Shown here: positions 1,406-36,747 of the stretch, in pieces | How the letters are laid out: every line of letters begins with the position of its first letter | Position numbering within the stretch: position 1 is the first letter of the stretch | Assembly: GCA_977018835.1 (NCBI GenBank) | Contig: OZ361259.1 | Coordinates: 930,001 to 994,000 of the forward strand | Direction of reading: 5' to 3' | Source: Minutocellus sp. GHC0000111 | Lineage: Eukaryota | Length of the DNA stretch: 64,000 nucleotides | Translations under genes and position numbers: made by a program | Notes under the pieces: generated by a model | The model's input: only the letters and a program-made list of their open reading frames with translations | Told to the model about the DNA's origin: nothing | The model's database searches: none

Positions 1406-1630
1406 TGGAGGGAGGATGGGGGCCACACCGACCATAGCCATGCCCACACACAAGAGCTCTCCAAAATTGCTTTCCAGAAAAATGGTGGCGCCACAAAGAT
1501 TGAATTATGAACCCTCAACACCAGAGAGTACCAACCACAATCTTGGGGGGAAAATACTGGTAGACCTAAGGTCAATTGGATGATGTGACTTTTCTTGGAA
1601 ATAGAGATTACTATGAACAAACTAGCTAGT

Positions 1631-11453: not shown

Positions 11454-11702
11454 ATGGTGCCTGGCAAAGGAACCAGATGGAGGGAGGATGGGGGCCACAC
11501 CGACCATAGCCATGCCCACACACAAGAGCTCTCCAAAATTGCTTTCCAGAAAAATGGTGGCGCCACAAAGATTGAATTATGAACCCTCAACACCAGAGAG
11601 TACCAACCACAATCTTGGGGGGAAAATACTGGTAGACCTAAGGTCAATTGGATGATGTGACTTTTCTTGGAAATAGAGATTACTATGAACAAACTAGCTA
11701 GT

Positions 11703-12532: not shown

Positions 12533-12990
12533 CTAGTGCCACACCACATTCATGGCACTGAGAGACCAAGAGTTGCTGGGATGGCTGTTGGATGCCGGCT
12601 GTCTGCTCTGGCACTGCCTTCTGCTGTGTCACTTCAGGGGAGTGACAGATGGTTGCCATGCGATGAACACTGTGTGCTGACGGTGCAGGTGATTTGACAG
12701 GTCAGCATAAATCTTTTGTAAAACATGCACTTTGCATGAGAATGGTGCCTGGCAAAGGAACCAGATGGAGGGAGGATGGGGGCCACACCGACCATAGCCA
12801 TGCCCACACACAAGAGCTCTCCAAAATTGCTTTCCAGAAAAATGGTGGCGCCACAAAGATTGAATTATGAACCCTCAACACCAGAGAGTACCAACCACAA
12901 TCTTGGGGGGAAAATACTGGTAGACCTAAGGTCAATTGGATGATGTGACTTTTCTTGGAAATAGAGATTACTATGAACAAACTAGCTAGT

Positions 12991-13850
12991 CTACCTACGA
13001 GTAGCAGTAGGAAATTCGGAGGGAATCGCCGAAGGACTGTCTGAAGGAAATTCGGAGGGAATCGCCGAAGGAGCATCGGATGGCAACGTGGAAGGAATAC
13101 TCAAAGATTCTGACGGAGATGTGGACGGAACATCGGAAGTCTTGGAGGGTGTAGCCGAGGGAGCCTTTGTCAGAGCCGGAGTTGGAGGGACGGGGGTGAA
13201 AAAATTGGACTTGCTCTTGGATCTGCTGCTGCCACCGGACGTGCTCTTGGATCTGCTGCTGCCACCGGACGTGCTCTTGGATCTGCTGCTGCCACCGGAC
13301 GTGCTCTTGGATCTGCTGCTGCCACCGGACGTGCTCTTGGATCTGCTGCTGCCACCAGAAGACTTGCTACCTCCGGACTTGGGCTTGCTCCTGGGGACAA
13401 CAATTAGGCTATTGGGTCCACGAGTAAGGCCCTTCGGAACAGCTTTGTCAAAAGCGGGATTGACGACAGGAAGGCCTGTGCCTGGATCGAGGCTGAATGG
13501 AAGAACTCCCCGAGGATCAAGGAGTTCAGTGAATTCCTGCTCCACCGTGGCTGCAATATTACTTGGATTTTGAGTGTCCAGGGAGGCAAGAACGCTATAG
13601 GTAGTGAAAATAAATCCAGGGGTGTAAGGAGAAGGTGCAAGGAAGTCTCCAATCTTCTGCATCAGTTTGCCAGTAAAAAAGTAGTTGAAGATTTCAGCTG
13701 GGCAGCGGCGATAACCGAGACCAAAGGGGCAGTACTTGGGCTTATCGAAAACGGGAATAAATTTCTTATGAGAAGAAGGAATGATCGTTTGACCGTCAAG
13801 ATCAGATGGCTTGAGATTTCCGGCAGAAGCTGGACAATTCTTTGGAATGA
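12991..13850 (-). pseudogene. Type B copy
   Basis: Junction B at 13850/13851. Confidence 0.85.
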
Positions 13851-14308
13851 CTAGTGCCACACCACATTCATGGCACTGAGAGACCAAGAGTTGCTGGGAT
13901 GGCTGTTGGATGCCGGCTGTCTGCTCTGGCACTGCCTTCTGCTGTGTCACTTCAGGGGAGTGACAGATGGTTGCCATGCGATGAACACTGTGTGCTGACG
14001 GTGCAGGTGATTTGACAGGTCAGCATAAATCTTTTGTAAAACATGCACTTTGCATGAGAATGGTGCCTGGCAAAGGAACCAGATGGAGGGAGGATGGGGG
14101 CCACACCGACCATAGCCATGCCCACACACAAGAGCTCTCCAAAATTGCTTTCCAGAAAAATGGTGGCGCCACAAAGATTGAATTATGAACCCTCAACACC
14201 AGAGAGTACCAACCACAATCTTGGGGGGAAAATACTGGTAGACCTAAGGTCAATTGGATGATGTGACTTTTCTTGGAAATAGAGATTACTATGAACAAAC
14301 TAGCTAGT

Positions 14309-16643
14309 CTACCTACGAGTAGCAGTAGGAAATTCGGAGGGAATCGCCGAAGGACTGTCTGAAGGAAATTCGGAGGGAATCGCCGAAGGAGCATCGGATG
14401 GCAACGTGGAAGGAATACTCAAAGATTCTGACGGAGATGTGGACGGAACATCGGAAGTCTTGGAGGGTGTAGCCGAGGGAGCCTTTGTCAGAGCCGGAGT
14501 TGGAGGGACGGGGGTGAAAAAATTGGACTTGCTCTTGGATCTGCTGCTGCCACCGGACGTGCTCTTGGATCTGCTGCTGCCACCGGACGTGCTCTTGGAT
14601 CTGCTGCTGCCACCGGACGTGCTCTTGGATCTGCTGCTGCCACCGGACGTGCTCTTGGATCTGCTGCTGCCACCAGAAGACTTGCTACCTCCGGACTTGG
14701 GCTTGCTCCTGGGGACAACAATTAGGCTATTGGGTCCACGAGTAAGGCCCTTCGGAACAGCTTTGTCAAAAGCGGGATTGACGACAGGAAGGCCTGTGCC
14801 TGGATCGAGGCTGAATGGAAGAACTCCCCGAGGATCAAGGAGTTCAGTGAATTCCTGCTCCACCGTGGCTGCAATATTACTTGGATTTTGAGTGTCCAGG
14901 GAGGCAAGAACGCTATAGGTAGTGAAAATAAATCCAGGGGTGTAAGGAGAAGGTGCAAGGAAGTCTCCAATCTTCTGCATCAGTTTGCCAGTAAAAAAGT
15001 AGTTGAAGATTTCAGCTGGGCAGCGGCGATAACCGAGACCAAAGGGGCAGTACTTGGGCTTATCGAAAACGGGAATAAATTTCTTATGAGAAGAAGGAAT
15101 GATCGTTTGACCGTCAAGATCAGATGGCTTGAGATTTCCGGCAGAAGCTGGACAATTCTTTGGAATGAAGTCAGCGTAGCGGATAGTGTTGTACTCGGCA
15201 GCTGAAGTTTCAAAGGTGGCTGGGTCAAAGTTGTCGTTCAGGGCTTGGATTACTAAGGGGATATGGTATGATGGCGACGGGTCATAGCTTTCATCAGCTA
15301 TTATTTTTTGACATAAGTCAGTGTGGTAGTAGCAGCACAGATGCATGTAGAATCATGGGGAAGAGGAATTAAATTAGAATGAGCAGAAACATTTCACAAA
15401 CAACAAGGGAAAAATCAAGGCCAAAAGACCAAGTGTAAAATGTTGTACATGCACTCACCTAGGGTAAGATTTTTGTTTGCCCCCTCGGCCTTTTGGGCGG
15501 TACTCAACCATATGTCATTTGGCAGCAGCAGACGGAACACCTCACGTACAACGTTTATGCGCTCGTCGTCGGAAGGTGCGGCCTCGTACTTTGAAAAGAA
15601 GTCGATTGGAGGGAACGGCTTGAGGAGGTCAGCGGCGGTGTTGCCAGTAAATTTCTCGACATTGAGATATCCTGGAGCTGGAATGTTCAGTCCAACAAGT
15701 TCTGTGGCAAACTTATCAAAGGCGAGCTTGTAGAGAGTATTGACAAATTGGCCGAAAGCAAGGGCATTGTGCGCAGCCTCAACGATGATGGACTCAGCAG
15801 GAATGCCAGCTTCGATAAAAACGAAAAGCAAAGGGGACCAAATAATGTGTGTTAGTTATGGATATGAATCTTGCTATACGGTGGTGAATTGATGATATGA
15901 ATCACCACGATCTTGAGATAATTTCATCAATGTGTAATGCATTACAATCGATGGTAAAATTGAAAACAAAAGCTTACCCAAGTTCCACCAGTACACAAAA
16001 GTACTTTTGTCCTCTGCGTCGACAACCATATTACGACGTTCTTCGTAATACCCCGTAACGAACGGCTCAAGGCATGTGAGGGTTGCCATTGTGTCATTTC
16101 GTAGACCAAGACTGCCTCGCCCGATATCAGACAATAGGTCTCGCTGCAAGACAAGATAGTCTTTGACAAAGCTAGGATGATCAGCTTCTCCGAAATGAAT
16201 ATCGAGAAGTAGCTGGAAAACAATGTCATCCCAAGCGCTGATAATGTTCGTTGCGACACCCTCGGACGCGAGCTGCTCGCTCATGAATTTAGTGAATCCA
16301 TCGATGGCCTTATCAATCTTAGGTTCGTAGTACTGCAGCTTGTCACACGTCAAAGCTGACATGTACTGCTTCTTCAACTGGTTGTCTGGTCCGCGATCTT
16401 CAAGGTTGGTAAGAAAGACGGTATTTTTGCCATCTCCTGATTTCAAAGTAGTCGGATCTAAATTGACCAAACTGAGCAGGAAAAACGGCACACCACCAAA
16501 TTTTTGGTGGCCAACATCTTTGTACTGCGGGTCAAGGCCGGGAGTGTCGGGAATTCCTTCAACGCTCTGCCCAAAGGCAGATGGAATAGTGTTGGCGAAC
16601 CAAGGGAGAGGAAAATCTTTGTTGATTGGCTCGGGGCCGATTC
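14309..16643 (-). pseudogene. Type A truncated P450 copy
   Basis: Junction A at 16643/16644. Confidence 0.85.
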
Positions 16644-16892
16644 ATGGTGCCTGGCAAAGGAACCAGATGGAGGGAGGATGGGGGCCACACCGACCATAGC
16701 CATGCCCACACACAAGAGCTCTCCAAAATTGCTTTCCAGAAAAATGGTGGCGCCACAAAGATTGAATTATGAACCCTCAACACCAGAGAGTACCAACCAC
16801 AATCTTGGGGGGAAAATACTGGTAGACCTAAGGTCAATTGGATGATGTGACTTTTCTTGGAAATAGAGATTACTATGAACAAACTAGCTAGT

Positions 16893-17752
16893 CTACCTAC
16901 GAGTAGCAGTAGGAAATTCGGAGGGAATCGCCGAAGGACTGTCTGAAGGAAATTCGGAGGGAATCGCCGAAGGAGCATCGGATGGCAACGTGGAAGGAAT
17001 ACTCAAAGATTCTGACGGAGATGTGGACGGAACATCGGAAGTCTTGGAGGGTGTAGCCGAGGGAGCCTTTGTCAGAGCCGGAGTTGGAGGGACGGGGGTG
17101 AAAAAATTGGACTTGCTCTTGGATCTGCTGCTGCCACCGGACGTGCTCTTGGATCTGCTGCTGCCACCGGACGTGCTCTTGGATCTGCTGCTGCCACCGG
17201 ACGTGCTCTTGGATCTGCTGCTGCCACCGGACGTGCTCTTGGATCTGCTGCTGCCACCAGAAGACTTGCTACCTCCGGACTTGGGCTTGCTCCTGGGGAC
17301 AACAATTAGGCTATTGGGTCCACGAGTAAGGCCCTTCGGAACAGCTTTGTCAAAAGCGGGATTGACGACAGGAAGGCCTGTGCCTGGATCGAGGCTGAAT
17401 GGAAGAACTCCCCGAGGATCAAGGAGTTCAGTGAATTCCTGCTCCACCGTGGCTGCAATATTACTTGGATTTTGAGTGTCCAGGGAGGCAAGAACGCTAT
17501 AGGTAGTGAAAATAAATCCAGGGGTGTAAGGAGAAGGTGCAAGGAAGTCTCCAATCTTCTGCATCAGTTTGCCAGTAAAAAAGTAGTTGAAGATTTCAGC
17601 TGGGCAGCGGCGATAACCGAGACCAAAGGGGCAGTACTTGGGCTTATCGAAAACGGGAATAAATTTCTTATGAGAAGAAGGAATGATCGTTTGACCGTCA
17701 AGATCAGATGGCTTGAGATTTCCGGCAGAAGCTGGACAATTCTTTGGAATGA
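16893..17752 (-). pseudogene. Type B copy
   Basis: Junction B at 17752/17753. Confidence 0.85.
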
Positions 17753-18210
17753 CTAGTGCCACACCACATTCATGGCACTGAGAGACCAAGAGTTGCTGGG
17801 ATGGCTGTTGGATGCCGGCTGTCTGCTCTGGCACTGCCTTCTGCTGTGTCACTTCAGGGGAGTGACAGATGGTTGCCATGCGATGAACACTGTGTGCTGA
17901 CGGTGCAGGTGATTTGACAGGTCAGCATAAATCTTTTGTAAAACATGCACTTTGCATGAGAATGGTGCCTGGCAAAGGAACCAGATGGAGGGAGGATGGG
18001 GGCCACACCGACCATAGCCATGCCCACACACAAGAGCTCTCCAAAATTGCTTTCCAGAAAAATGGTGGCGCCACAAAGATTGAATTATGAACCCTCAACA
18101 CCAGAGAGTACCAACCACAATCTTGGGGGGAAAATACTGGTAGACCTAAGGTCAATTGGATGATGTGACTTTTCTTGGAAATAGAGATTACTATGAACAA
18201 ACTAGCTAGT

Positions 18211-20549
18211 CTACCTACGAGTAGCAGTAGGAAATTCGGAGGGAATCGCCGAAGGACTGTCTGAAGGAAATTCGGAGGGAATCGCCGAAGGAGCATCGGA
18301 TGGCAACGTGGAAGGAATACTCAAAGATTCTGACGGAGATGTGGACGGAACATCGGAAGTCTTGGAGGGTGTAGCCGAGGGAGCCTTTGTCAGAGCCGGA
18401 GTTGGAGGGACGGGGGTGAAAAAATTGGACTTGCTCTTGGATCTGCTGCTGCCACCGGACGTGCTCTTGGATCTGCTGCTGCCACCCACCGGACGTGCTC
18501 TTGGATCTGCTGCTGCCACCGGACGTGCTCTTGGATCTGCTGCTGCCACCGGACGTGCTCTTGGATCTGCTGCTGCCACCAGAAGACTTGCTACCTCCGG
18601 ACTTGGGCTTGCTCCTGGGGACAACAATTAGGCTATTGGGTCCACGAGTAAGGCCCTTCGGAACAGCTTTGTCAAAAGCGGGATTGACGACAGGAAGGCC
18701 TGTGCCTGGATCGAGGCTGAATGGAAGAACTCCCCGAGGATCAAGGAGTTCAGTGAATTCCTGCTCCACCGTGGCTGCAATATTACTTGGATTTTGAGTG
18801 TCCAGGGAGGCAAGAACGCTATAGGTAGTGAAAATAAATCCAGGGGTGTAAGGAGAAGGTGCAAGGAAGTCTCCAATCTTCTGCATCAGTTTGCCAGTAA
18901 AAAAGTAGTTGAAGATTTCAGCTGGGCAGCGGCGATAACCGAGACCAAAGGGGCAGTACTTGGGCTTATCGAAAACGGGAATAAATTTCTTATGAGAAGA
19001 AGGAATGATCGTTTGACCGTCAAGATCAGATGGCTTGAGATTTCCGGCAGAAGCTGGACAATTCTTTGGAATGAAGTCAGCGTAGCGGATAGTGTTGTAC
19101 TCGGCAGCTGAAGTTTCAAAGGTGGCTGGGTCAAAGTTGTCGTTCAGGGCTTGGATTACTAAGGGGATATGGTATGATGGCGACGGGTCATAGCTTTCAT
19201 CAGCTATTATTTTTTGACATAAGTCAGTGTGGTAGTAGCAGCACAGATGCATGTAGAATCATGGGGAAGAGGAATTAAATTAGAATGAGCAGAAACATTT
19301 CACAAACAACAAGGGAAAAATCAAGGCCAAAAGACCAAGTGTAAAATGTTGTACATGCACTCACCTAGGGTAAGATTTTTGTTTGCCCCCTCGGCCTTTT
19401 GGGCGGTACTCAACCATATGTCATTTGGCAGCAGCAGACGGAACACCTCACGTACAACGTTTATGCGCTCGTCGTCGGAAGGAGCGGCCTCGTACTTTGA
19501 AAAGAAGTCGATTGGAGGGAACGGCTTGAGGAGGTCAGCGGCGGTGTTGCCAGTAAATTTCTCGACATTGAGATATCCTGGAGCTGGAATGTTCAGTCCA
19601 ACAAGTTCTGTGGCAAACTTATCAACGGCGAGCTTGTAGAGAGTATTGACAAATTGGCCGAAAGCAAGGGCATTGTGCGCAGCCTCAACGATGATGGACT
19701 CAGCAGGAATGCCAGCTTCGATAAAAACGAAAAGCAAAGGGGACCAAATAATGTGTGTTAGTTATGGATATGAATCTTGCTATACGGTGGTGAATTGATG
19801 ATATGAATCACCACGATCTTGAGATAATTTCATCAATGTGTAATGCATTACAATCGATGGTAAAATTGAAAACAAAAGCTTACCCAAGTTCCACCAGTAC
19901 ACAAAAGTACTTTTGTCCTCTGCGTCGACAACCATATTACGACGTTCTTCGTAATACCCCGTAACGAACGGCTCAAGGCATGTGAGGGTTGCCATTGTGT
20001 CATTTCGTAGACCAAGACTGCCTCGCCCGATATCAGACAATAGGTCTCGCTGCAAGACAAGATAGTCTTTGACAAAGCTAGGATGATCAGCTTCTCCGAA
20101 ATGAATATCGAGAAGTAGCTGGAAAACAATGTCATCCCAAGCGCTGATAATGTTCGTTGCGACACCCTCGGACGCGAGCTGCTCGCTCATGAATTTAGTG
20201 AATCCATCGATGGCCTTATCAATCTTAGGTTCGTAGTACTGCAGCTTGTCACACGTCAAAGCTGACATGTACTGCTTCTTCAACTGGTTGTCTGGTCCGC
20301 GATCTTCAAGGTTGGTAAGAAAGACGGTATTTTTGCCATCTCCTGATTTCAAAGTAGTCGGATCTAAATTGACCAAACTGAGCAGGAAAAACGGCACACC
20401 ACCAAATTTTTGGTGGCCAACATCTTTGTACTGCGGGTCAAGGCCGGGAGTGTCGGGAATTCCTTCAACGCTCTGCCCAAAGGCAGATGGAATAGTGTTG
20501 GCGAACCAAGGGAGAGGAAAATCTTTGTTGATTGGCTCGGGGCCGATTC
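18211..20549 (-). pseudogene. Type A copy with 4-bp frameshift in the VNTR
   Basis: gccacccaccgg at ~18481-18492; junction A at 20549/20550. Confidence 0.85.
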
Positions 20550-20798
20550 ATGGTGCCTGGCAAAGGAACCAGATGGAGGGAGGATGGGGGCCACACCGAC
20601 CATAGCCATGCCCACACACAAGAGCTCTCCAAAATTGCTTTCCAGAAAAATGGTGGCGCCACAAAGATTGAATTATGAACCCTCAACACCAGAGAGTACC
20701 AACCACAATCTTGGGGGGAAAATACTGGTAGACCTAAGGTCAATTGGATGATGTGACTTTTCTTGGAAATAGAGATTACTATGAACAAACTAGCTAGT

Positions 20799-21784
20799 CT
20801 ACCTACGAGTAGCAGTAGGAAATTCGGAGGGAATCGCCGAAGGACTGTCTGAAGGAAATTCGGAGGGCGTCTCCGAAGGACTGTCTGAAGGAAATTCGGA
20901 GGGAATCGCCGAAGGAGCATCGGATGGCAACGTGGAAGGAATACTCAAAGATTCTGACGGAGATGTGGACGGAACATCGGAAGTCTTGGAGGGTGTAGCC
21001 GAGGGAGCCTTTGTCAGAGCCGGAGTTGGAGGGACGGGGGTGAAAAAATTGGACTTGCTCTTGGATCTGCTGCTGCCACCGGACGTGCTCTTGGATCTGC
21101 TGCTGCCACCGGACGTGCTCTTGGATCTGCTGCTGCCACCGGACGTGCTCTTGGATCTGCTGCTGCCACCGGACGTGCTCTTGGATCTGCTGCTGCCACC
21201 GGACGTGCTCTTGGATCTGCTGCTGCCACCGGACGTGCTCTTGGATCTGCTGCTGCCACCGGACGTGCTCTTGGATCTGCTGCTGCCACCAGAAGACTTG
21301 CTACCTCCGGACTTGGGCTTGCTCCTGGGGACAACAATTAGGCTATTGGGTCCACGAGTAAGGCCCTTCGGAACAGCTTTGTCAAAAGCGGGATTGACGA
21401 CAGGAAGGCCTGTGCCTGGATCGAGGCTGAATGGAAGAACTCCCCGAGGATCAAGGAGTTCAGTGAATTCCTGCTCCACCGTGGCTGCAATATTACTTGG
21501 ATTTTGAGTGTCCAGGGAGGCAAGAACGCTATAGGTAGTGAAAATAAATCCAGGGGTGTAAGGAGAAGGTGCAAGGAAGTCTCCAATCTTCTGCATCAGT
21601 TTGCCAGTAAAAAAGTAGTTGAAGATTTCAGCTGGGCAGCGGCGATAACCGAGACCAAAGGGGCAGTACTTGGGCTTATCGAAAACGGGAATAAATTTCT
21701 TATGAGAAGAAGGAATGATCGTTTGACCGTCAAGATCAGATGGCTTGAGATTTCCGGCAGAAGCTGGACAATTCTTTGGAATGA
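20799..21784 (-). pseudogene. Type B copy (8 copies of 30-bp VNTR)
   Basis: Junction B at 21784/21785. Confidence 0.85.
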
Positions 21785-22242
21785 CTAGTGCCACACCACA
21801 TTCATGGCACTGAGAGACCAAGAGTTGCTGGGATGGCTGTTGGATGCCGGCTGTCTGCTCTGGCACTGCCTTCTGCTGTGTCACTTCAGGGGAGTGACAG
21901 ATGGTTGCCATGCGATGAACACTGTGTGCTGACGGTGCAGGTGATTTGACAGGTCAGCATAAATCTTTTGTAAAACATGCACTTTGCATGAGAATGGTGC
22001 CTGGCAAAGGAACCAGATGGAGGGAGGATGGGGGCCACACCGACCATAGCCATGCCCACACACAAGAGCTCTCCAAAATTGCTTTCCAGAAAAATGGTGG
22101 CGCCACAAAGATTGAATTATGAACCCTCAACACCAGAGAGTACCAACCACAATCTTGGGGGGAAAATACTGGTAGACCTAAGGTCAATTGGATGATGTGA
22201 CTTTTCTTGGAAATAGAGATTACTATGAACAAACTAGCTAGT

Positions 22243-24577
22243 CTACCTACGAGTAGCAGTAGGAAATTCGGAGGGAATCGCCGAAGGACTGTCTGAAGGA
22301 AATTCGGAGGGAATCGCCGAAGGAGCATCGGATGGCAACGTGGAAGGAATACTCAAAGATTCTGACGGAGATGTGGACGGAACATCGGAAGTCTTGGAGG
22401 GTGTAGCCGAGGGAGCCTTTGTCAGAGCCGGAGTTGGAGGGACGGGGGTGAAAAAATTGGACTTGCTCTTGGATCTGCTGCTGCCACCGGACGTGCTCTT
22501 GGATCTGCTGCTGCCACCGGACGTGCTCTTGGATCTGCTGCTGCCACCGGACGTGCTCTTGGATCTGCTGCTGCCACCGGACGTGCTCTTGGATCTGCTG
22601 CTGCCACCAGAAGACTTGCTACCTCCGGACTTGGGCTTGCTCCTGGGGACAACAATTAGGCTATTGGGTCCACGAGTAAGGCCCTTCGGAACAGCTTTGT
22701 CAAAAGCGGGATTGACGACAGGAAGGCCTGTGCCTGGATCGAGGCTGAATGGAAGAACTCCCCGAGGATCAAGGAGTTCAGTGAATTCCTGCTCCACCGT
22801 GGCTGCAATATTACTTGGATTTTGAGTGTCCAGGGAGGCAAGAACGCTATAGGTAGTGAAAATAAATCCAGGGGTGTAAGGAGAAGGTGCAAGGAAGTCT
22901 CCAATCTTCTGCATCAGTTTGCCAGTAAAAAAGTAGTTGAAGATTTCAGCTGGGCAGCGGCGATAACCGAGACCAAAGGGGCAGTACTTGGGCTTATCGA
23001 AAACGGGAATAAATTTCTTATGAGAAGAAGGAATGATCGTTTGACCGTCAAGATCAGATGGCTTGAGATTTCCGGCAGAAGCTGGACAATTCTTTGGAAT
23101 GAAGTCAGCGTAGCGGATAGTGTTGTACTCGGCAGCTGAAGTTTCAAAGGTGGCTGGGTCAAAGTTGTCGTTCAGGGCTTGGATTACTAAGGGGATATGG
23201 TATGATGGCGACGGGTCATAGCTTTCATCAGCTATTATTTTTTGACATAAGTCAGTGTGGTAGTAGCAGCACAGATGCATGTAGAATCATGGGGAAGAGG
23301 AATTAAATTAGAATGAGCAGAAACATTTCACAAACAACAAGGGAAAAATCAAGGCCAAAAGACCAAGTGTAAAATGTTGTACATGCACTCACCTAGGGTA
23401 AGATTTTTGTTTGCCCCCTCGGCCTTTTGGGCGGTACTCAACCATATGTCATTTGGCAGCAGCAGACGGAACACCTCACGTACAACGTTTATGCGCTCGT
23501 CGTCGGAAGGAGCGGCCTCGTACTTTGAAAAGAAGTCGATTGGAGGGAACGGCTTGAGGAGGTCAGCGGCGGTGTTGCCAGTAAATTTCTCGACATTGAG
23601 ATATCCTGGAGCTGGAATGTTCAGTCCAACAAGTTCTGTGGCAAACTTATCAAAGGCGAGCTTGTAGAGAGTATTGACAAATTGGCCGAAAGCAAGGGCA
23701 TTGTGCGCAGCCTCAACGATGATGGACTCAGCAGGAATGCCAGCTTCGATAAAAACGAAAAGCAAAGGGGACCAAATAATGTGTGTTAGTTATGGATATG
23801 AATCTTGCTATACGGTGGTGAATTGATGATATGAATCACCACGATCTTGAGATAATTTCATCAATGTGTAATGCATTACAATCGATGGTAAAATTGAAAA
23901 CAAAAGCTTACCCAAGTTCCACCAGTACACAAAAGTACTTTTGTCCTCTGCGTCGACAACCATATTACGACGTTCTTCGTAATACCCCGTAACGAACGGC
24001 TCAAGGCATGTGAGGGTTGCCATTGTGTCATTTCGTAGACCAAGACTGCCTCGCCCGATATCAGACAATAGGTCTCGCTGCAAGACAAGATAGTCTTTGA
24101 CAAAGCTAGGATGATCAGCTTCTCCGAAATGAATATCGAGAAGTAGCTGGAAAACAATGTCATCCCAAGCGCTGATAATGTTCGTTGCGACACCCTCGGA
24201 CGCGAGCTGCTCGCTCATGAATTTAGTGAATCCATCGATGGCCTTATCAATCTTAGGTTCGTAGTACTGCAGCTTGTCACACGTCAAAGCTGACATGTAC
24301 TGCTTCTTCAACTGGTTGTCTGGTCCGCGATCTTCAAGGTTGGTAAGAAAGACGGTATTTTTGCCATCTCCTGATTTCAAAGTAGTCGGATCTAAATTGA
24401 CCAAACTGAGCAGGAAAAACGGCACACCACCAAATTTTTGGTGGCCAACATCTTTGTACTGCGGGTCAAGGCCGGGAGTGTCGGGAATTCCTTCAACGCT
24501 CTGCCCAAAGGCAGATGGAATAGTGTTGGCGAACCAAGGGAGAGGAAAATCTTTGTTGATTGGCTCGGGGCCGATTC
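22243..24577 (-). pseudogene. Type A truncated P450 copy
   Basis: Junction A at 24577/24578. Confidence 0.85.
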
Positions 24578-24826
24578 ATGGTGCCTGGCAAAGGAACCAG
24601 ATGGAGGGAGGATGGGGGCCACACCGACCATAGCCATGCCCACACACAAGAGCTCTCCAAAATTGCTTTCCAGAAAAATGGTGGCGCCACAAAGATTGAA
24701 TTATGAACCCTCAACACCAGAGAGTACCAACCACAATCTTGGGGGGAAAATACTGGTAGACCTAAGGTCAATTGGATGATGTGACTTTTCTTGGAAATAG
24801 AGATTACTATGAACAAACTAGCTAGT

Positions 24827-27131
24827 CTACCTACGAGTAGCAGTAGGAAATTCGGAGGGAATCGCCGAAGGACTGTCTGAAGGAAATTCGGAGGGAATCG
24901 CCGAAGGAGCATCGGATGGCAACGTGGAAGGAATACTCAAAGATTCTGACGGAGATGTGGACGGAACATCGGAAGTCTTGGAGGGTGTAGCCGAGGGAGC
25001 CTTTGTCAGAGCCGGAGTTGGAGGGACGGGGGTGAAAAAATTGGACTTGCTCTTGGATCTGCTGCTGCCACCGGACGTGCTCTTGGATCTGCTGCTGCCA
25101 CCGGACGTGCTCTTGGATCTGCTGCTGCCACCGGACGTGCTCTTGGATCTGCTGCTGCCACCAGAAGACTTGCTACCTCCGGACTTGGGCTTGCTCCTGG
25201 GGACAACAATTAGGCTATTGGGTCCACGAGTAAGGCCCTTCGGAACAGCTTTGTCAAAAGCGGGATTGACGACAGGAAGGCCTGTGCCTGGATCGAGGCT
25301 GAATGGAAGAACTCCCCGAGGATCAAGGAGTTCAGTGAATTCCTGCTCCACCGTGGCTGCAATATTACTTGGATTTTGAGTGTCCAGGGAGGCAAGAACG
25401 CTATAGGTAGTGAAAATAAATCCAGGGGTGTAAGGAGAAGGTGCAAGGAAGTCTCCAATCTTCTGCATCAGTTTGCCAGTAAAAAAGTAGTTGAAGATTT
25501 CAGCTGGGCAGCGGCGATAACCGAGACCAAAGGGGCAGTACTTGGGCTTATCGAAAACGGGAATAAATTTCTTATGAGAAGAAGGAATGATCGTTTGACC
25601 GTCAAGATCAGATGGCTTGAGATTTCCGGCAGAAGCTGGACAATTCTTTGGAATGAAGTCAGCGTAGCGGATAGTGTTGTACTCGGCAGCTGAAGTTTCA
25701 AAGGTGGCTGGGTCAAAGTTGTCGTTCAGGGCTTGGATTACTAAGGGGATATGGTATGATGGCGACGGGTCATAGCTTTCATCAGCTATTATTTTTTGAC
25801 ATAAGTCAGTGTGGTAGTAGCAGCACAGATGCATGTAGAATCATGGGGAAGAGGAATTAAATTAGAATGAGCAGAAACATTTCACAAACAACAAGGGAAA
25901 AATCAAGGCCAAAAGACCAAGTGTAAAATGTTGTACATGCACTCACCTAGGGTAAGATTTTTGTTTGCCCCCTCGGCCTTTTGGGCGGTACTCAACCATA
26001 TGTCATTTGGCAGCAGCAGACGGAACACCTCACGTACAACGTTTATGCGCTCGTCGTCGGAAGGAGCGGCCTCGTACTTTGAAAAGAAGTCGATTGGAGG
26101 GAACGGCTTGAGGAGGTCAGCGGCGGTGTTGCCAGTAAATTTCTCGACATTGAGATATCCTGGAGCTGGAATGTTCAGTCCAACAAGTTCTGTGGCAAAC
26201 TTATCAAAGGCGAGCTTGTAGAGAGTATTGACAAATTGGCCGAAAGCAAGGGCATTGTGCGCAGCCTCAACGATGATGGACTCAGCAGGAATGCCAGCTT
26301 CGATAAAAACGAAAAGCAAAGGGGACCAAATAATGTGTGTTAGTTATGGATATGAATCTTGCTATACGGTGGTGAATTGATGATATGAATCACCACGATC
26401 TTGAGATAATTTCATCAATGTGTAATGCATTACAATCGATGGTAAAATTGAAAACAAAAGCTTACCCAAGTTCCACCAGTACACAAAAGTACTTTTGTCC
26501 TCTGCGTCGACAACCATATTACGACGTTCTTCGTAATACCCCGTAACGAACGGCTCAAGGCATGTGAGGGTTGCCATTGTGTCATTTCGTAGACCAAGAC
26601 TGCCTCGCCCGATATCAGACAATAGGTCTCGCTGCAAGACAAGATAGTCTTTGACAAAGCTAGGATGATCAGCTTCTCCGAAATGAATATCGAGAAGTAG
26701 CTGGAAAACAATGTCATCCCAAGCGCTGATAATGTTCGTTGCGACACCCTCGGACGCGAGCTGCTCGCTCATGAATTTAGTGAATCCATCGATGGCCTTA
26801 TCAATCTTAGGTTCGTAGTACTGCAGCTTGTCACACGTCAAAGCTGACATGTACTGCTTCTTCAACTGGTTGTCTGGTCCGCGATCTTCAAGGTTGGTAA
26901 GAAAGACGGTATTTTTGCCATCTCCTGATTTCAAAGTAGTCGGATCTAAATTGACCAAACTGAGCAGGAAAAACGGCACACCACCAAATTTTTGGTGGCC
27001 AACATCTTTGTACTGCGGGTCAAGGCCGGGAGTGTCGGGAATTCCTTCAACGCTCTGCCCAAAGGCAGATGGAATAGTGTTGGCGAACCAAGGGAGAGGA
27101 AAATCTTTGTTGATTGGCTCGGGGCCGATTC
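24827..27131 (-). pseudogene. Type A truncated P450 copy
   Basis: Junction A at 27131/27132. Confidence 0.85.
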
Positions 27132-27380
27132 ATGGTGCCTGGCAAAGGAACCAGATGGAGGGAGGATGGGGGCCACACCGACCATAGCCATGCCCACACA
27201 CAAGAGCTCTCCAAAATTGCTTTCCAGAAAAATGGTGGCGCCACAAAGATTGAATTATGAACCCTCAACACCAGAGAGTACCAACCACAATCTTGGGGGG
27301 AAAATACTGGTAGACCTAAGGTCAATTGGATGATGTGACTTTTCTTGGAAATAGAGATTACTATGAACAAACTAGCTAGT

Positions 27381-28210
27381 CTACCTACGAGTAGCAGTAG
27401 GAAATTCGGAGGGAATCGCCGAAGGACTGTCTGAAGGAAATTCGGAGGGAATCGCCGAAGGAGCATCGGATGGCAACGTGGAAGGAATACTCAAAGATTC
27501 TGACGGAGATGTGGACGGAACATCGGAAGTCTTGGAGGGTGTAGCCGAGGGAGCCTTTGTCAGAGCCGGAGTTGGAGGGACGGGGGTGAAAAAATTGGAC
27601 TTGCTCTTGGATCTGCTGCTGCCACCGGACGTGCTCTTGGATCTGCTGCTGCCACCGGACGTGCTCTTGGATCTGCTGCTGCCACCGGACGTGCTCTTGG
27701 ATCTGCTGCTGCCACCAGAAGACTTGCTACCTCCGGACTTGGGCTTGCTCCTGGGGACAACAATTAGGCTATTGGGTCCACGAGTAAGGCCCTTCGGAAC
27801 AGCTTTGTCAAAAGCGGGATTGACGACAGGAAGGCCTGTGCCTGGATCGAGGCTGAATGGAAGAACTCCCCGAGGATCAAGGAGTTCAGTGAATTCCTGC
27901 TCCACCGTGGCTGCAATATTACTTGGATTTTGAGTGTCCAGGGAGGCAAGAACGCTATAGGTAGTGAAAATAAATCCAGGGGTGTAAGGAGAAGGTGCAA
28001 GGAAGTCTCCAATCTTCTGCATCAGTTTGCCAGTAAAAAAGTAGTTGAAGATTTCAGCTGGGCAGCGGCGATAACCGAGACCAAAGGGGCAGTACTTGGG
28101 CTTATCGAAAACGGGAATAAATTTCTTATGAGAAGAAGGAATGATCGTTTGACCGTCAAGATCAGATGGCTTGAGATTTCCGGCAGAAGCTGGACAATTC
28201 TTTGGAATGA
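27381..28210 (-). pseudogene. Type B copy (3' part of exon 3 only)
   Basis: Exon 3 joined at ggaatga|ctag to the 233-bp element. Confidence 0.85.
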
Positions 28211-28664
28211 CTAGTGCCACACCACATTCATGGCACTGAGAGACCAAGAGTTGCTGGGATGGCTGTTGGATGCCGGCTGTCTGCTCTGGCACTGCCTTCT
28301 GCTGTGTCACTTCAGGGGAGTGACAGATGGTTGCCATGCGATGAACACTGTGTGCTGACGGTGCAGGTGATTTGACAGGTCAGCATAAATCTTTTGTAAA
28401 ACATGCACTTTGCATGAGAATGGTGCCTGGCAAAGGAACCAGATGGAGGGAGGATGGGGGCCACACCGACCATAGCCATGCCCACACACAAGAGCTCTCC
28501 AAAATTGCTTTCCAGAAAAATGGTGGCGCCACAAAGATTGAATTATGAACCCTCAACACCAGAGAGTACCACAATCTTGGGGGGAAAATACTGGTAGACC
28601 TAAGGTCAATTGGATGATGTGACTTTTCTTGGAAATAGAGATTACTATGAACAAACTAGCTAGT

Positions 28665-30945
28665 CTACCTACGAGTAGCAGTAGGAAATTCGGAGGGAAT
28701 CGCCGAAGGACTGTCTGAAGGAAATTCGGAGGGAATCTCCGAAGGACTGTCTGAAGGAAATTCGGAGGGAATCGCCGAAGGAGCATCGGATGGCAACGTG
28801 GAAGGAATACTCAAAGATTCTGACGGAGATGTGGACGGAACATCGGAAGTCTTGGAGGGTGTAGCCGAGGGAGCCTTTGTCAGAGCCGGAGTTGGAGGGA
28901 CGGGGGTGAAAAAATTGGACTTGCTCTTGGATCTGCTGCTGCCACCGGACGTGCTCTTGGATCTGCTGCTGCCACCAGAAGACTTGCTACCTCCGGACTT
29001 GGGCTTGCTCCTGGGGACAACAATTAGGCTATTGGGTCCACGAGTAAGGCCCTTCGGAACAGCTTTGTCAAAAGCGGGATTGACGACAGGAAGGCCTGTG
29101 CCTGGATCGAGGCTGAATGGAAGAACTCCCCGAGGATCAAGGAGTTCAGTGAATTCCTGCTCCACCGTGGCTGCAATATTACTTGGATTTTGAGTGTCCA
29201 GGGAGGCAAGAACGCTATAGGTAGTGAAAATAAATCCAGGGGTGTAAGGAGAAGGTGCAAGGAAGTCTCCAATCTTCTGCATCAGTTTGCCAGTAAAAAA
29301 GTAGTTGAAGATTTCAGCTGGGCAGCGGCGATAACCGAGACCAAAGGGGCAGTACTTGGGCTTATCGAAAACGGGAATAAATTTCTTATGAGAAGAAGGA
29401 ATGATCGTTTGACCGTCAAGATCAGATGGCTTGAGATTTCCGGCAGAAGCTGGACAATTCTTTGGAATGAAGTCAGCGTAGCGGATAGTGTTGTACTCGG
29501 CAGCTGAAGTTTCAAAGGTGGCTGGGTCAAAGTTGTCGTTCAGGGCTTGGATTACTAAGGGGATATGGTATGATGGCGACGGGTCATAGCTTTCATCAGC
29601 TATTATTTTTTGACATAAGTCAGTGTGGTAGTAGCAGCACAGATGCATGTAGAATCATGGGGAAGAGGAATTAAATTAGAATGAGCAGAAACATTTCACA
29701 AACAACAAGGGAAAAATCAAGGCCAAAAGACCAAGTGTAAAATGTTGTACATGCACTCACCTAGGGTAAGATTTTTGTTTGCCCCCTCGGCCTTTTGGGC
29801 GGTACTCAACCATATGTCATTTGGCAGCAGCAGACGGAACACCTCACGTACAACGTTTATGCGCTCGTCGTCGGAAGGAGCGGCCTCGTACTTTGAAAAG
29901 AAGTCGATTGGAGGGAACGGCTTGAGGAGGTCAGCGGCGGTGTTGCCAGTAAATTTCTCGACATTGAGATATCCTGGAGCTGGAATGTTCAGTCCAACAA
30001 GTTCTGTGGCAAACTTATCAACGGCGAGCTTGTAGAGAGTATTGACAAATTGGCCGAAAGCAAGGGCATTGTGCGCAGCCTCAACGATGATGGACTCAGC
30101 AGGAATGCCAGCTTCGATAAAAACGAAAAGCAAAGGGGACCAAATAATGTGTGTTAGTTATGGATATGAATCTTGCTATACGGTGGTGAATTGATGATAT
30201 GAATCACCACGATCTTGAGATAATTTCATCAATGTGTAATGCATTACAATCGATGGTAAAATTGAAAACAAAAGCTTACCCAAGTTCCACCAGTACACAA
30301 AAGTACTTTTGTCCTCTGCGTCGACAACCATATTACGACGTTCTTCGTAATACCCCGTAACGAACGGCTCAAGGCATGTGAGGGTTGCCATTGTGTCATT
30401 TCGTAGACCAAGACTGCCTCGCCCGATATCAGACAATAGGTCTCGCTGCAAGACAAGATAGTCTTTGACAAAGCTAGGATGATCAGCTTCTCCGAAATGA
30501 ATATCGAGAAGTAGCTGGAAAACAATGTCATCCCAAGCGCTGATAATGTTCGTTGCGACACCCTCGGACGCGAGCTGCTCGCTCATGAATTTAGTGAATC
30601 CATCGATGGCCTTATCAATCTTAGGTTCGTAGTACTGCAGCTTGTCACACGTCAAAGCTGACATGTACTGCTTCTTCAACTGGTTGTCTGGTCCGCGATC
30701 TTCAAGGTTGGTAAGAAAGACGGTATTTTTGCCATCTCCTGATTTCAAAGTAGTCGGATCTAAATTGACCAAACTGAGCAGGAAAAACGGCACACCACCA
30801 AATTTTTGGTGGCCAACATCTTTGTACTGCGGGTCAAGGCCGGGAGTGTCGGGAATTCCTTCAACGCTCTGCCCAAAGGCAGATGGAATAGTGTTGGCGA
30901 ACCAAGGGAGAGGAAAATCTTTGTTGATTGGCTCGGGGCCGATTC
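28665..30945 (-). pseudogene. Type A truncated P450 copy (2 copies of 30-bp VNTR)
   Basis: Junction A at 30945/30946. Confidence 0.85.
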
Positions 30946-31194
30946 ATGGTGCCTGGCAAAGGAACCAGATGGAGGGAGGATGGGGGCCACACCGACCATA
31001 GCCATGCCCACACACAAGAGCTCTCCAAAATTGCTTTCCAGAAAAATGGTGGCGCCACAAAGATTGAATTATGAACCCTCAACACCAGAGAGTACCAACC
31101 ACAATCTTGGGGGGAAAATACTGGTAGACCTAAGGTCAATTGGATGATGTGACTTTTCTTGGAAATAGAGATTACTATGAACAAACTAGCTAGT

Positions 31195-33625
31195 CTACCT
31201 ACGAGTAGCAGTAGGAAATTCGGAGGGAATCGCCGAAGGACTGTCTGAAGGAAATTCGGAGGGCGTCTCCGAAGGACTGTCTGAAGGAAATTCGGAGGGA
31301 ATCGCCGAAGGAGCATCGGATGGCAACGTGGAAGGAATACTCAAAGATTCTGACGGAGATGTGGACGGAACATCGGAAGTCTTGGAGGGTGTAGCCGAGG
31401 GAGCCTTTGTCAGAGCCGGAGTTGGAGGGACGGGGGTGAAAAAATTGGACTTGCTCTTGGATCTGCTGCTGCCACCGGACGTGCTCTTGGATCTGCTGCT
31501 GCCACCGGACGTGCTCTTGGATCTGCTGCTGCCACCGGACGTGCTCTTGGATCTGCTGCTGCCACCGGACGTGCTCTTGGATCTGCTGCTGCCACCGGAC
31601 GTGCTCTTGGATCTGCTGCTGCCACCGGACGTGCTCTTGGATCTGCTGCTGCCACCAGAAGACTTGCTACCTCCGGACTTGGGCTTGCTCCTGGGGACAA
31701 CAATTAGGCTATTGGGTCCACGAGTAAGGCCCTTCGGAACAGCTTTGTCAAAAGCGGGATTGACGACAGGAAGGCCTGTGCCTGGATCGAGGCTGAATGG
31801 AAGAACTCCCCGAGGATCAAGGAGTTCAGTGAATTCCTGCTCCACCGTGGCTGCAATATTACTTGGATTTTGAGTGTCCAGGGAGGCAAGAACGCTATAG
31901 GTAGTGAAAATAAATCCAGGGGTGTAAGGAGAAGGTGCAAGGAAGTCTCCAATCTTCTGCATCAGTTTGCCAGTAAAAAAGTAGTTGAAGATTTCAGCTG
32001 GGCAGCGGCGATAACCGAGACCAAAGGGGCAGTACTTGGGCTTATCGAAAACGGGAATAAATTTCTTATGAGAAGAAGGAATGATCGTTTGACCGTCAAG
32101 ATCAGATGGCTTGAGATTTCCGGCAGAAGCTGGACAATTCTTTGGAATGAAGTCAGCGTAGCGGATAGTGTTGTACTCGGCAGCTGAAGTTTCAAAGGTG
32201 GCTGGGTCAAAGTTGTCGTTCAGGGCTTGGATTACTAAGGGGATATGGTATGATGGCGACGGGTCATAGCTTTCATCAGCTATTATTTTTTGACATAAGT
32301 CAGTGTGGTAGTAGCAGCACAGATGCATGTAGAATCATGGGGAAGAGGAATTAAATTAGAATGAGCAGAAACATTTCACAAACAACAAGGGAAAAATCAA
32401 GGCCAAAAGACCAAGTGTAAAATGTTGTACATGCACTCACCTAGGGTAAGATTTTTGTTTGCCCCCTCGGCCTTTTGGGCGGTACTCAACCATATGTCAT
32501 TTGGCAGCAGCAGACGGAACACCTCACGTACAACGTTTATGCGCTCGTCGTCGGAAGGAGCGGCCTCGTACTTTGAAAAGAAGTCGATTGGAGGGAACGG
32601 CTTGAGGAGGTCAGCGGCGGTGTTGCCAGTAAATTTCTCGACATTGAGATATCCTGGAGCTGGAATGTTCAGTCCAACAAGTTCTGTGGCAAACTTATCA
32701 ACGGCGAGCTTGTAGAGAGTATTGACAAATTGGCCGAAAGCAAGGGCATTGTGCGCAGCCTCAACGATGATGGACTCAGCAGGAATGCCAGCTTCGATAA
32801 AAACGAAAAGCAAAGGGGACCAAATAATGTGTGTTAGTTATGGATATGAATCTTGCTATACGGTGGTGAATTGATGATATGAATCACCACGATCTTGAGA
32901 TAATTTCATCAATGTGTAATGCATTACAATCGATGGTAAAATTGAAAACAAAAGCTTACCCAAGTTCCACCAGTACACAAAAGTACTTTTGTCCTCTGCG
33001 TCGACAACCATATTACGACGTTCTTCGTAATACCCCGTAACGAACGGCTCAAGGCATGTGAGGGTTGCCATTGTGTCATTTCGTAGACCAAGACTGCCTC
33101 GCCCGATATCAGACAATAGGTCTCGCTGCAAGACAAGATAGTCTTTGACAAAGCTAGGATGATCAGCTTCTCCGAAATGAATATCGAGAAGTAGCTGGAA
33201 AACAATGTCATCCCAAGCGCTGATAATGTTCGTTGCGACACCCTCGGACGCGAGCTGCTCGCTCATGAATTTAGTGAATCCATCGATGGCCTTATCAATC
33301 TTAGGTTCGTAGTACTGCAGCTTGTCACACGTCAAAGCTGACATGTACTGCTTCTTCAACTGGTTGTCTGGTCCGCGATCTTCAAGGTTGGTAAGAAAGA
33401 CGGTATTTTTGCCATCTCCTGATTTCAAAGTAGTCGGATCTAAATTGACCAAACTGAGCAGGAAAAACGGCACACCACCAAATTTTTGGTGGCCAACATC
33501 TTTGTACTGCGGGTCAAGGCCGGGAGTGTCGGGAATTCCTTCAACGCTCTGCCCAAAGGCAGATGGAATAGTGTTGGCGAACCAAGGGAGAGGAAAATCT
33601 TTGTTGATTGGCTCGGGGCCGATTC
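31195..33625 (-). pseudogene. Type A 5'-truncated P450 copy (lacks first ~147 codons)
   Basis: Matches the intact gene up to the equivalent of 36305, then joins 24 nt of the element (gattc|atggtgcc); both introns retained. Confidence 0.85.
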
Positions 33626-33874: not shown

Positions 33875-36747
33875 CTACCTACGAGTAGCAGTAGGAAATT
33901 CGGAGGGAATCGCCGAAGGACTGTCTGAAGGAAATTCGGAGGGCGTCTCCGAAGGACTGTCTGAAGGAAATTCGGAGGGAATCGCCGAAGGAGCATCGGA
34001 TGGCAACGTGGAAGGAATACTCAAAGATTCTGACGGAGATGTGGACGGAACATCGGAAGTCTTGGAGGGTGTAGCCGAGGGAGCCTTTGTCAGAGCCGGA
34101 GTTGGAGGGACGGGGGTGAAAAAATTGGACTTGCTCTTGGATCTGCTGCTGCCACCGGACGTGCTCTTGGATCTGCTGCTGCCACCGGACGTGCTCTTGG
34201 ATCTGCTGCTGCCACCGGACGTGCTCTTGGATCTGCTGCTGCCACCGGACGTGCTCTTGGATCTGCTGCTGCCACCGGACGTGCTCTTGGATCTGCTGCT
34301 GCCACCGGACGTGCTCTTGGATCTGCTGCTGCCACCAGAAGACTTGCTACCTCCGGACTTGGGCTTGCTCCTGGGGACAACAATTAGGCTATTGGGTCCA
34401 CGAGTAAGGCCCTTCGGAACAGCTTTGTCAAAAGCGGGATTGACGACAGGAAGGCCTGTGCCTGGATCGAGGCTGAATGGAAGAACTCCCCGAGGATCAA
34501 GGAGTTCAGTGAATTCCTGCTCCACCGTGGCTGCAATATTACTTGGATTTTGAGTGTCCAGGGAGGCAAGAACGCTATAGGTAGTGAAAATAAATCCAGG
34601 GGTGTAAGGAGAAGGTGCAAGGAAGTCTCCAATCTTCTGCATCAGTTTGCCAGTAAAAAAGTAGTTGAAGATTTCAGCTGGGCAGCGGCGATAACCGAGA
34701 CCAAAGGGGCAGTACTTGGGCTTATCGAAAACGGGAATAAATTTCTTATGAGAAGAAGGAATGATCGTTTGACCGTCAAGATCAGATGGCTTGAGATTTC
34801 CGGCAGAAGCTGGACAATTCTTTGGAATGAAGTCAGCGTAGCGGATAGTGTTGTACTCGGCAGCTGAAGTTTCAAAGGTGGCTGGGTCAAAGTTGTCGTT
34901 CAGGGCTTGGATTACTAAGGGGATATGGTATGATGGCGACGGGTCATAGCTTTCATCAGCTATTATTTTTTGACATAAGTCAGTGTGGTAGTAGCAGCAC
35001 AGATGCATGTAGAATCATGGGGAAGAGGAATTAAATTAGAATGAGCAGAAACATTTCACAAACAACAAGGGAAAAATCAAGGCCAAAAGACCAAGTGTAA
35101 AATGTTGTACATGCACTCACCTAGGGTAAGATTTTTGTTTGCCCCCTCGGCCTTTTGGGCGGTACTCAACCATATGTCATTTGGCAGCAGCAGACGGAAC
35201 ACCTCACGTACAACGTTTATGCGCTCGTCGTCGGAAGGAGCGGCCTCGTACTTTGAAAAGAAGTCGATTGGAGGGAACGGCTTGAGGAGGTCAGCGGCGG
35301 TGTTGCCAGTAAATTTCTCGACATTGAGATATCCTGGAGCTGGAATGTTCAGTCCAACAAGTTCTGTGGCAAACTTATCAACGGCGAGCTTGTAGAGAGT
35401 ATTGACAAATTGGCCGAAAGCAAGGGCATTGTGCGCAGCCTCAACGATGATGGACTCAGCAGGAATGCCAGCTTCGATAAAAACGAAAAGCAAAGGGGAC
35501 CAAATAATGTGTGTTAGTTATGGATATGAATCTTGCTATACGGTGGTGAATTGATGATATGAATCACCACGATCTTGAGATAATTTCATCAATGTGTAAT
35601 GCATTACAATCGATGGTAAAATTGAAAACAAAAGCTTACCCAAGTTCCACCAGTACACAAAAGTACTTTTGTCCTCTGCGTCGACAACCATATTACGACG
35701 TTCTTCGTAATACCCCGTAACGAACGGCTCAAGGCATGTGAGGGTTGCCATTGTGTCATTTCGTAGACCAAGACTGCCTCGCCCGATATCAGACAATAGG
35801 TCTCGCTGCAAGACAAGATAGTCTTTGACAAAGCTAGGATGATCAGCTTCTCCGAAATGAATATCGAGAAGTAGCTGGAAAACAATGTCATCCCAAGCGC
35901 TGATAATGTTCGTTGCGACACCCTCGGACGCGAGCTGCTCGCTCATGAATTTAGTGAATCCATCGATGGCCTTATCAATCTTAGGTTCGTAGTACTGCAG
36001 CTTGTCACACGTCAAAGCTGACATGTACTGCTTCTTCAACTGGTTGTCTGGTCCGCGATCTTCAAGGTTGGTAAGAAAGACGGTATTTTTGCCATCTCCT
36101 GATTTCAAAGTAGTCGGATCTAAATTGACCAAACTGAGCAGGAAAAACGGCACACCACCAAATTTTTGGTGGCCAACATCTTTGTACTGCGGGTCAAGGC
36201 CGGGAGTGTCGGGAATTCCTTCAACGCTCTGCCCAAAGGCAGATGGAATAGTGTTGGCGAACCAAGGGAGAGGAAAATCTTTGTTGATTGGCTCGGGGCC
36301 GATTCCACGGAATATTGGTGAACTGTATCCAATCCCGGGGGCAACTCGCTTTGCCTCGAGTTCAAATAGCAGGCGAATGTAATCAGCCGTTTCAGCTGAG
36401 TTGACACATGCATCGAGATCGGCAGTAGAGAACGACGAGGCGGAAGATTCACTTGAAGAATCTCCCCCCCAATTGAAGTTAGACTTGCTCCTACTCTTGG
36501 ACTTGCTTCCACTTCCAGAGACAGCAGTTGGAGTCACCATCATAGTTGGAGCAACATTTGAACCTCCGCTGCTCTTCGAGCCTCCGCTGCTCTTGTGGCT
36601 CTTCATGCTGCTGCCACTTTGCAAGTCTCTTTTCTTGCCGCCCTTCAGCCTGTCGGGGAGAATGCTTGGCACATTCCCCCACTCATTGTCCGCAAAAACG
36701 CTGGAATCAAAGAGGACTGCGGTCAAAAACACGAAAAAAGCCTTCAT
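33875..36747 (-). CDS. Cytochrome P450-fold protein with signal peptide, RXL propeptide, silaffin-like Lys/Ser/Gly repeats and Ser/Pro-rich tail; exons 36747-35640, 35471-35121, 34959-33875; 847 aa
   Basis: ATG at 36747 (MKAFFVFLTAVLFDSSVFA). Two phase-1 GT-AG introns (35639-35472 gtaagc..gaag; 35120-34960 gtgagt..atag) join the three ORFs in frame (1108+351+1085=2544 nt). P450 motifs appear in the correct order: I-helix EAAHNALAFGQF, K-helix EVFR, PERF-like FDPATF, heme loop PFGLGYRRCPAE. Confidence 0.88.
34127..34337 (-). repeat. Coding 30-bp VNTR (GGSSRSKSTS)n; 7 units in the intact gene, 2-8 in copies
   Basis: Exact repeat ggacgtgctcttggatctgctgctgccacc. Confidence 0.95.

Follow-up and report, generated by a model that had tools for sequence, protein, structure and literature searches.

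A spliced three-exon gene beside a tandem array of its truncated copies

The window, a stretch of 64,000 nucleotides from Minutocellus sp. GHC0000111, carries on its minus strand a gene with exons at 36747-35640, 35471-35121, and 34959-33875, whose product has 847 residues. A preliminary description of this DNA had reported a noncanonical P450 I-helix at 35121-35471; on the minus strand, this interval is exactly exon 2 of the three-exon gene, which spans 36747-33875. The features of the gene and of the array downstream of it are as follows.

35640..36747, minus strand: exon 1, residues 1-370 (gene model and RNA contigs of runs X1 and X5)
36691..36747, minus strand: predicted cleavable signal peptide, residues 1-19, followed by an R-D-L motif at residues 40-42 (sequence hydropathy)
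35472..35639, minus strand: intron 1, 168 nt, GT-AG (gene model and RNA contigs)
35121..35471, minus strand: exon 2, I-helix to K-helix (gene model and RNA contigs)
35359..35460, minus strand: I-helix, residues 374-407, with E380, H383, N384, A387, Q390 (acid position), and F391 (Thr position) (alignment and model)
35164..35205, minus strand: K-helix E459-x-x-R462, then conserved P466, N467, and S472 (alignment)
34960..35120, minus strand: intron 2, 161 nt, GT-AG (gene model and RNA contigs)
33875..34959, minus strand: exon 3, residues 488-847 (gene model and RNA contigs)
34676..34705, minus strand: haem-binding loop, with Cys579 at 34684-34682, ending C-P-A (alignment)
33878..34372, minus strand: low-complexity tail of seven 30-bp Ser/Gly/Lys repeats, then Pro/Ser/Thr repeats (sequence)
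64..33625, minus strand: tandem array of 5′-truncated gene copies (sequence comparison and stepped contig depth in run X12)

Splicing follows the predicted three-exon structure: RNA contigs of two studies (runs X1 and X5) lack exactly the two introns, and in one X5 contig the 5′ portion of exon 1, which is single-copy, runs directly into exon 2. These contigs are evidence of presence and splicing, not of expression level. Beyond 36805, RNA contigs of X1, X5, and X6 run on into several hundred letters absent from the window. Read by eye, the frame of this extension is open, with an ATG 21 codons upstream; a strain difference or a contig join may account for it.

In the product, a short hydrophobic N terminus and the R-D-L motif precede a Ser/Lys-rich linker, which leads into a domain of about 575 residues and then a repeat tail. 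Exon 1 encodes the signal peptide, the linker, and the N-terminal half of the P450 domain, and its 3′ end encodes FVYWW. The meander, a family-specific insertion of about 40 residues, the haem loop, and a Ser/Lys and Pro/Ser/Thr tail are encoded by exon 3.

The array covers at least 33 kb, reaches the window edge, and is made of near-identical truncated copies of three unit types. In seven units the copy opens at codon 149, preceded by an in-frame stop; nine others begin inside exon 3, three of the latter being chimeric. With the full gene counted, the window holds 11 copies of exon 2 (99.4-100% identity), of which only the one at 35121-35471 belongs to a complete gene, and 20 copies of the haem loop. 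The 30-bp repeat is present in 2 to 8 copies per array unit. The array looks recent, and its copies, which have no signal peptide, are likely nonfunctional; the first Met of the long units corresponds to residue 242. A polyprotein of repeated P450 domains was ruled out by the in-frame stop ahead of the long units, by their late first Met, and by the exon-3 starts of the other units. An assembly artefact is unlikely, since run X12 contains matching junction ends and its depth steps through 240, 1321, and 4976; this run may be the assembly's own source, and contig depth is not copy number. A 234-bp stretch at 43386-43619, 7 kb from the array, matches the junction of the exon-3-type units at 100% identity and may be its donor.

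Several other features lie in the window. Just upstream of the gene, 36954-38620 (plus strand) contains broken reading frames partly covered by RNA contigs and with no Pfam match, which end in a motif that we take to be that of Crypton-type recombinases; RNA contigs from X3 and X6 leave out the segment 37895-39364. On the minus strand, 40020-42455 encodes a large secreted-looking protein with Lys-rich STGG-type repeats and Pro/Thr repeats, RNA contig cover, and no Pfam match. Its N terminus resembles that of the P450 gene product, and we presume it to be silaffin-like. At 51995-53645 (minus strand), weak, below-cutoff matches to a zinc knuckle and a Mutator-like transposase point to a likely decayed transposon. 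A 458-residue ORF at 60593-61969 (plus strand) has an N-terminal membrane-like segment and no Pfam match.

A modelled P450 fold with a remodelled I-helix groove

Pfam returned no p450 match for the three exons or for seven homologues and only weak ones for bacterial family members, and PDB sequence searches with exon 1 and with A1 found no match. We therefore rely on structure prediction for the fold. The closest complete homologue, P0035 (49% identity to the window protein), was folded with 123 sequences, which gave a model with a pLDDT of 90.2 and a pTM of 0.91; it contains no haem and represents the homologue's fold, not that of the window protein. All of its top 50 structure matches are P450s (best Z 20.4, rmsd 4.0, 350 aligned residues), with no single structure standing out. 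A bacterial homologue modelled with a pLDDT of 93.2 likewise gave P450s as top matches, and an atlas search agreed with the assignment. On the basis of these models, the window gene encodes a P450-fold protein.

The signature motifs are consistent with this assignment. Both Glu and Arg of ExxR are kept in 115/119 family rows (E459 and R462 in the window protein), and the Cys of the haem loop FxxGxRxC is kept in 113/117 (C579), suggesting that the window protein binds haem. The C-P-A end of the loop, noted in the preliminary description, is present, in exon 3 (34705-34676); the FVYWW that it mentioned lies at the end of exon 1 (35661), and neither is part of exon 2. The spacing from ExxR to the Cys is 119-129 residues in the family versus 72-83 in canonical P450s, which by alignment corresponds to an insertion of about 40 residues on the proximal side.

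Translation of 35121-35471 yields the I-helix motif quoted in the preliminary description, with E380 (codon at 35442), H383, N384, A387, Q390, and F391. It had been claimed to lack the acid-Thr pair of AGx(D/E)T, and we aligned family alignments with a profile of 28 canonical P450s using HHalign. In two family alignments, A387 falls on the Ala of AGHET (probability 96.9 and 98.3), and F388, G389, Q390, and F391 occupy the G, x, acid, and Thr places. Because of this register and because the homologue model has one unbroken helix through the motif region, we place AFGQF where AGx(D/E)T is expected. In alignment A2 (123 rows, three of them fragments of the window gene), a [DE][TS] pair between the groove Ala and position +8 occurs in 0/121 rows. 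A Gln occupies the acid site and F, Y, or W the Thr site in 108/121 rows each, and Thr is found at the Thr site in no row of the family alignment. The search for a Thr and an acid at the oxygen groove thus ended in a Gln and an aromatic residue, and the alignments indicate that the acid-alcohol pair of O2 activation has been lost in the family.

One turn upstream of the groove, E-x-x-H-N is near-invariant across the diatom-like, virus-like, and bacterial groups (E380 in 118/122 rows, H383 in 116/122, N384 in 115/122, and the groove A387 in 119/122). Its conservation in all three groups points to retained catalysis. This motif may resemble the EA.HN motif of plant CYP74s.

Relatives in giant viruses and bacteria

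A profile search gathered 245 family representatives at E 0.001. Two trees were built without CYP74 sequences, one with 138 rows after removal of 14 incomplete ones and a second with 47 rows. The diatom-like clade has a support of 98 and 95 in the two trees; 2 of its 20 rows are named, and the only named close relatives are proteins of Epithemia clementina (37% identity). Bacterial members form a monophyletic clade on a long branch (support 99 and 100), outside the diatom-like clade. A third, large group consists of unnamed members, five of which are found on IMG/VR contigs, four of these labelled GVMAG. The metagenome contigs inspected are densely packed with intronless genes, and one carries a minor capsid gene; because six of them show no viral hallmark, the label "virus-like" is partly an interpretation. 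Phage records yielded no family match. The preliminary description had set the protein beside CYP74 and CYP152. It appears to belong instead to a separate, deep P450 lineage that includes neither, and its family shares 8-15% sequence identity with the matched solved P450s.

A resemblance to uncharacterised bacterial P450s and a possible horizontal origin had also been proposed. Bacterial relatives do exist, but the nearest relatives outside diatoms appear to be giant-virus-like, as the window protein is 32-37% identical to its best virus-like and 25-27% to its best bacterial relatives. A direct bacterial donor is not demonstrated, the bacteria forming one outside clade and the AU test being neutral: a clade uniting diatoms and bacteria is absent from the best tree, yet compatible with the data (p-AU 0.71, constrained tree 13.85 log units better). 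Horizontal exchange of the family among groups is likely from the trees. The virus-like protein P0043 falls inside the diatom-like clade, suggesting a possible exchange between virus and eukaryote. Its gene (L134:632-2875, L135:7209-9452) sits on a gene-dense, intronless contig and adjoins an ERCC4/MUS81-type nuclease gene. A bacterial member, P0169, is fused to an N-terminal Ferritin-like domain (PF12902).

The family itself is not described in the literature that our search returned; surveys of viral or stramenopile P450s or an existing CYP name may cover some members. Such a family could be overlooked because Pfam does not detect its diatom-like members.

Export signals in part of the family

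P450s are usually regarded as cytosol-facing enzymes tied to a reductase. The window protein is predicted to be secreted: its N terminus has a hydropathy of 2.74 over 11 residues, with a best 19-mer of only 1.67, and the signal-peptide call is based on hydropathy and the cleavage motif. The RNA sequence that extends beyond 36805, with its open frame and upstream ATG, counts against this call. Most diatom-like members have a signal-like stretch at their start. One cysteine is specific to the clade, being present in 23/24 diatom-like rows versus 0/12 bacterial and 1/85 other rows; clade-specific cysteines fit disulfides in a secreted protein.

Among 432 matched bacterial stretches, a twin-arginine motif is present in 76 of the best 80, a set biased to one clade; in a second bacterial set, it is present in 13/43 scorable loci (26/69 were not scorable). 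Tat export of two plasmid copies is backed by RefSeq names and by the Pfam TAT_signal family. In the virus-like group, 15/66 members have a membrane or signal segment, and 51/66 have none. The earlier proposal of an extracellular enzyme would fit the window protein, with its predicted signal peptide, and the Tat-exported bacterial clade, but not the many members without an export signal; judging from their sequences, export is not family-wide. Many bacterial and virus-like members have no targeting signal and could therefore meet a reductase. A literature search, consisting mostly of listings and the starts of abstracts, found no natively exported P450.

Genes next to the bacterial members

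No conserved operon was found in 80 bacterial loci. A patatin gene lies near 11/80 of them, and the six checked all agree in Pfam. A gene for a Phenol_MetA_deg outer-membrane channel is found downstream in 3/3 plasmid loci, versus 2/148 others. These three plasmid loci (L205, L206, and L207) carry a two-gene module of the P450-like gene and the channel gene, with insertion sequences around two of the three. The 88 adjacent bacterial genes include three enoyl-CoA hydratases, three acyl-CoA dehydrogenases, two Pyr_redox proteins, and one flavodoxin-reductase, and no lipoxygenase. A ferredoxin motif within 1.5 kb occurs in 0/95 family loci versus 3/30 canonical loci, a small contrast (p 0.013, for loci that are related and not independent). 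The bacterial neighbours hint at lipids and go no further, and the missing lipoxygenase and the three flavin reductase-type genes count against a reductase-free conversion of hydroperoxides.

A peroxide-driven reaction as the preferred function

As exported members cannot reach NAD(P)H, their oxidant would have to arrive with the substrate or as H2O2. Export and the remodelled groove together favour reductase independence, and we consider it probable that the enzymes of this family use a peroxide of one kind or the other without a reductase. In the excerpted text of one study, the residue that lies over the haem in self-sufficient isomerases of hydroperoxides and endoperoxides is either an amide or nonpolar (PMC13049297). 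Because the groove has no acid and such isomerases tolerate a nonpolar residue there, hydroperoxide rearrangement is favoured. Our preferred reading, held tentatively and at a little less than an even chance, is that of a secreted enzyme that cleaves and rearranges a fatty-acid hydroperoxide without a reductase. The hydroperoxide would be cleaved at the ferric haem and then rearranged by chemistry of the epoxyalcohol synthase or lyase type. The amide of N384 or Q390 may guide the peroxide in the way that Asn321 of plant AOS does, the 40-residue proximal insertion may hinder docking of a redox partner, and the substrate would be a lipid.

Diatoms form epoxy alcohols, and part of a published account gives the epoxyalcohol-forming enzyme as not demonstrated and CYP74-like enzymes as lost in diatoms (PMC10864609). 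The broadest version of our proposal, which we regard as unlikely in its entirety, is an exported P450-fold family with a Glu-His-Asn set that was exchanged among bacteria, giant viruses, and diatoms and whose diatom members are the missing extracellular epoxyalcohol synthase or hydroperoxide lyase. A family that combines secreted diatom members, Tat-exported bacterial members, and a new groove motif would mean that P450s had come to peroxide-driven chemistry by one more independent path, and it would offer a soluble, partner-free biocatalyst; it also makes the open question of the diatom epoxy-alcohol enzyme testable. With members in giant viruses, one may also ask how viruses deal with the lipid peroxides of their hosts.

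Somewhat unlikely, and the strongest of the alternatives, is an H2O2-driven peroxygenase in which the Glu380-His383 dyad would act as a peroxidase-like acid-base catalyst for the extracellular hydroxylation or decarboxylation of fatty acids or aromatics. The two residues are near-invariant and one turn apart, although His383 precedes the groove Ala by four positions and may lie too far away to reach the iron. In the alignment, N384 falls on the Asn of the CYP152 motif ELINxxRP, and two bacterial members have CYP152 models as their best, if weak, NCBIfam matches (E 0.005 and 0.009), but Ala-Phe replaces the Arg-Pro of that motif, and CYP152 structures do not stand out among the fold matches (Z 18.0-18.2). 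Fatty acids would be provided by the patatin and the channel encoded nearby in bacteria. A Gln at the acid site is also described, in part of one source, for CYP255 peroxygenases (PMC11842817), whose Glu is replaced here by an aromatic residue.

An improbable alternative is a redox-neutral or noncatalytic haem protein, such as a dehydratase, an isomerase, a peroxide scavenger, or a carrier of haem or lipid. The distal pocket may have little free space, given the aromatic residue at the Thr site and the Phe in the Gly position, and the genes stand alone, outside any conserved pathway. However, polar pocket residues strictly conserved across three domains of sequence space fit a specific chemistry, and there is no positive evidence for another reaction.

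It is quite improbable that the protein is an unusual, ER-anchored, reductase-dependent monooxygenase that obtains its protons through the substrate or the Glu-His-Asn set. In its favour, many members from bacteria and from the virus-like group appear to be cytosolic, ExxR and the Phe and Cys of the haem loop are canonical, and GcoA is described in the excerpted text of one report as a monooxygenase without the acid-alcohol pair (PMC11842817). The Tat export of a large bacterial clade, the short hydrophobic stretch, cleavage motif, and clade-specific cysteines of the diatom-like group, and the proximal insertion all argue against it.

Very improbable is a matrix cross-linker whose silaffin-like scaffold would take the domain into the diatom wall or mucilage for peroxide-driven coupling of matrix polymers: the Ser/Lys- and Pro/Ser/Thr-rich extensions of the window protein, the Lys- or Ser-rich ends of several diatom-like homologues, the 71-80% likeness of the 30-bp repeats in the P450 gene and the neighbouring repeat-protein gene, and the likeness of the two N termini (30/5000 shuffles were as good) speak for it, but BLASTP between these N termini is not significant, no 14-residue window of the P450-like protein contains 5 Lys, many homologues lack the tails, and a buried P450 pocket suits small substrates.

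Comparison with known P450 systems

The best BFVD match is a giant-virus P450, ChoanoV1 A0A5B8IHG5 (E 3.6e-11, 20% identity). The family members on giant-virus contigs (GVMAG loci L082-L085) have the same motifs; unlike the window gene, viral members are intronless and mostly devoid of a signal peptide, and they are uncharacterised. The same family and motifs are found in bacterial P450-like proteins named "twin-arginine translocation signal domain-containing" (WP_084585529.1 and WP_218520482.1), which have Tat signals. Also uncharacterised, these belong to the long-branch clade and are only 25-27% identical to the window protein.

CYP255 enzymes (SyoA and GcoA) have Gln-Glu at the groove according to part of one source (PMC11842817). 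The Gln at the acid site is common to both families, but the next residue here is F, Y, W, or L, never Glu, and no sequence relationship was shown.

The hallmark of CYP152 is an Arg-Pro in the I-helix, as stated in excerpts of PMC5818669. CYP152 enzymes (BSbeta, SPalpha, and OleT) share with the family an aligned Glu and Asn at the start of the I-helix and the Lys of the C-helix motif. Against seven CYP152-like sequences, N384 falls on the Asn and A387 on the Arg of ELINxxRP; as this position is Ala in 119/122 rows and is followed by Phe, the Arg-Pro is absent from the family. The two also differ in ExxR-to-Cys spacing (82 versus 121 here), they are separated in the tree by a long branch, and the CYP152 NCBIfam score of bacterial members is 15 bits against a cutoff of 600. 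BLASTP of the window protein against three CYP152-like sequences gave no match at E 10.

Neither the matches listed in the fold searches with the P0035 and bacterial models nor the listed PDB sequence matches include a CYP74, and scanning 146, 401, and 146 genomes for sequence patterns of bacterial CYP74-like genes yielded no matches or chance-like ones. The hallmark of the CYP74 clan is described, in part of one source, as a nine-residue insertion in the haem-binding loop (PMC8124189). As the preliminary description had stated, it is absent here: the loop aligns without gaps to canonical P450s, with no insertion between FxxG and the Cys. The groove reads AFxQF in the family versus FN321TwGGMKI in plant AOS, whose I-helix is given as FATcFN321TwGGMKI in the excerpted text of PMC13049297. 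With N384 at Ala-3 and Q390 at Ala+3, either may be the counterpart of Asn321, depending on the register. CYP74 and CYP5164 enzymes (AOS, HPL, and EAS) resemble the family in their P450 fold, groove amides, absence of the acid-alcohol pair, and likely reductase independence, whereas the 40-residue insertion before the haem loop and the predicted export set the family apart from CYP74.
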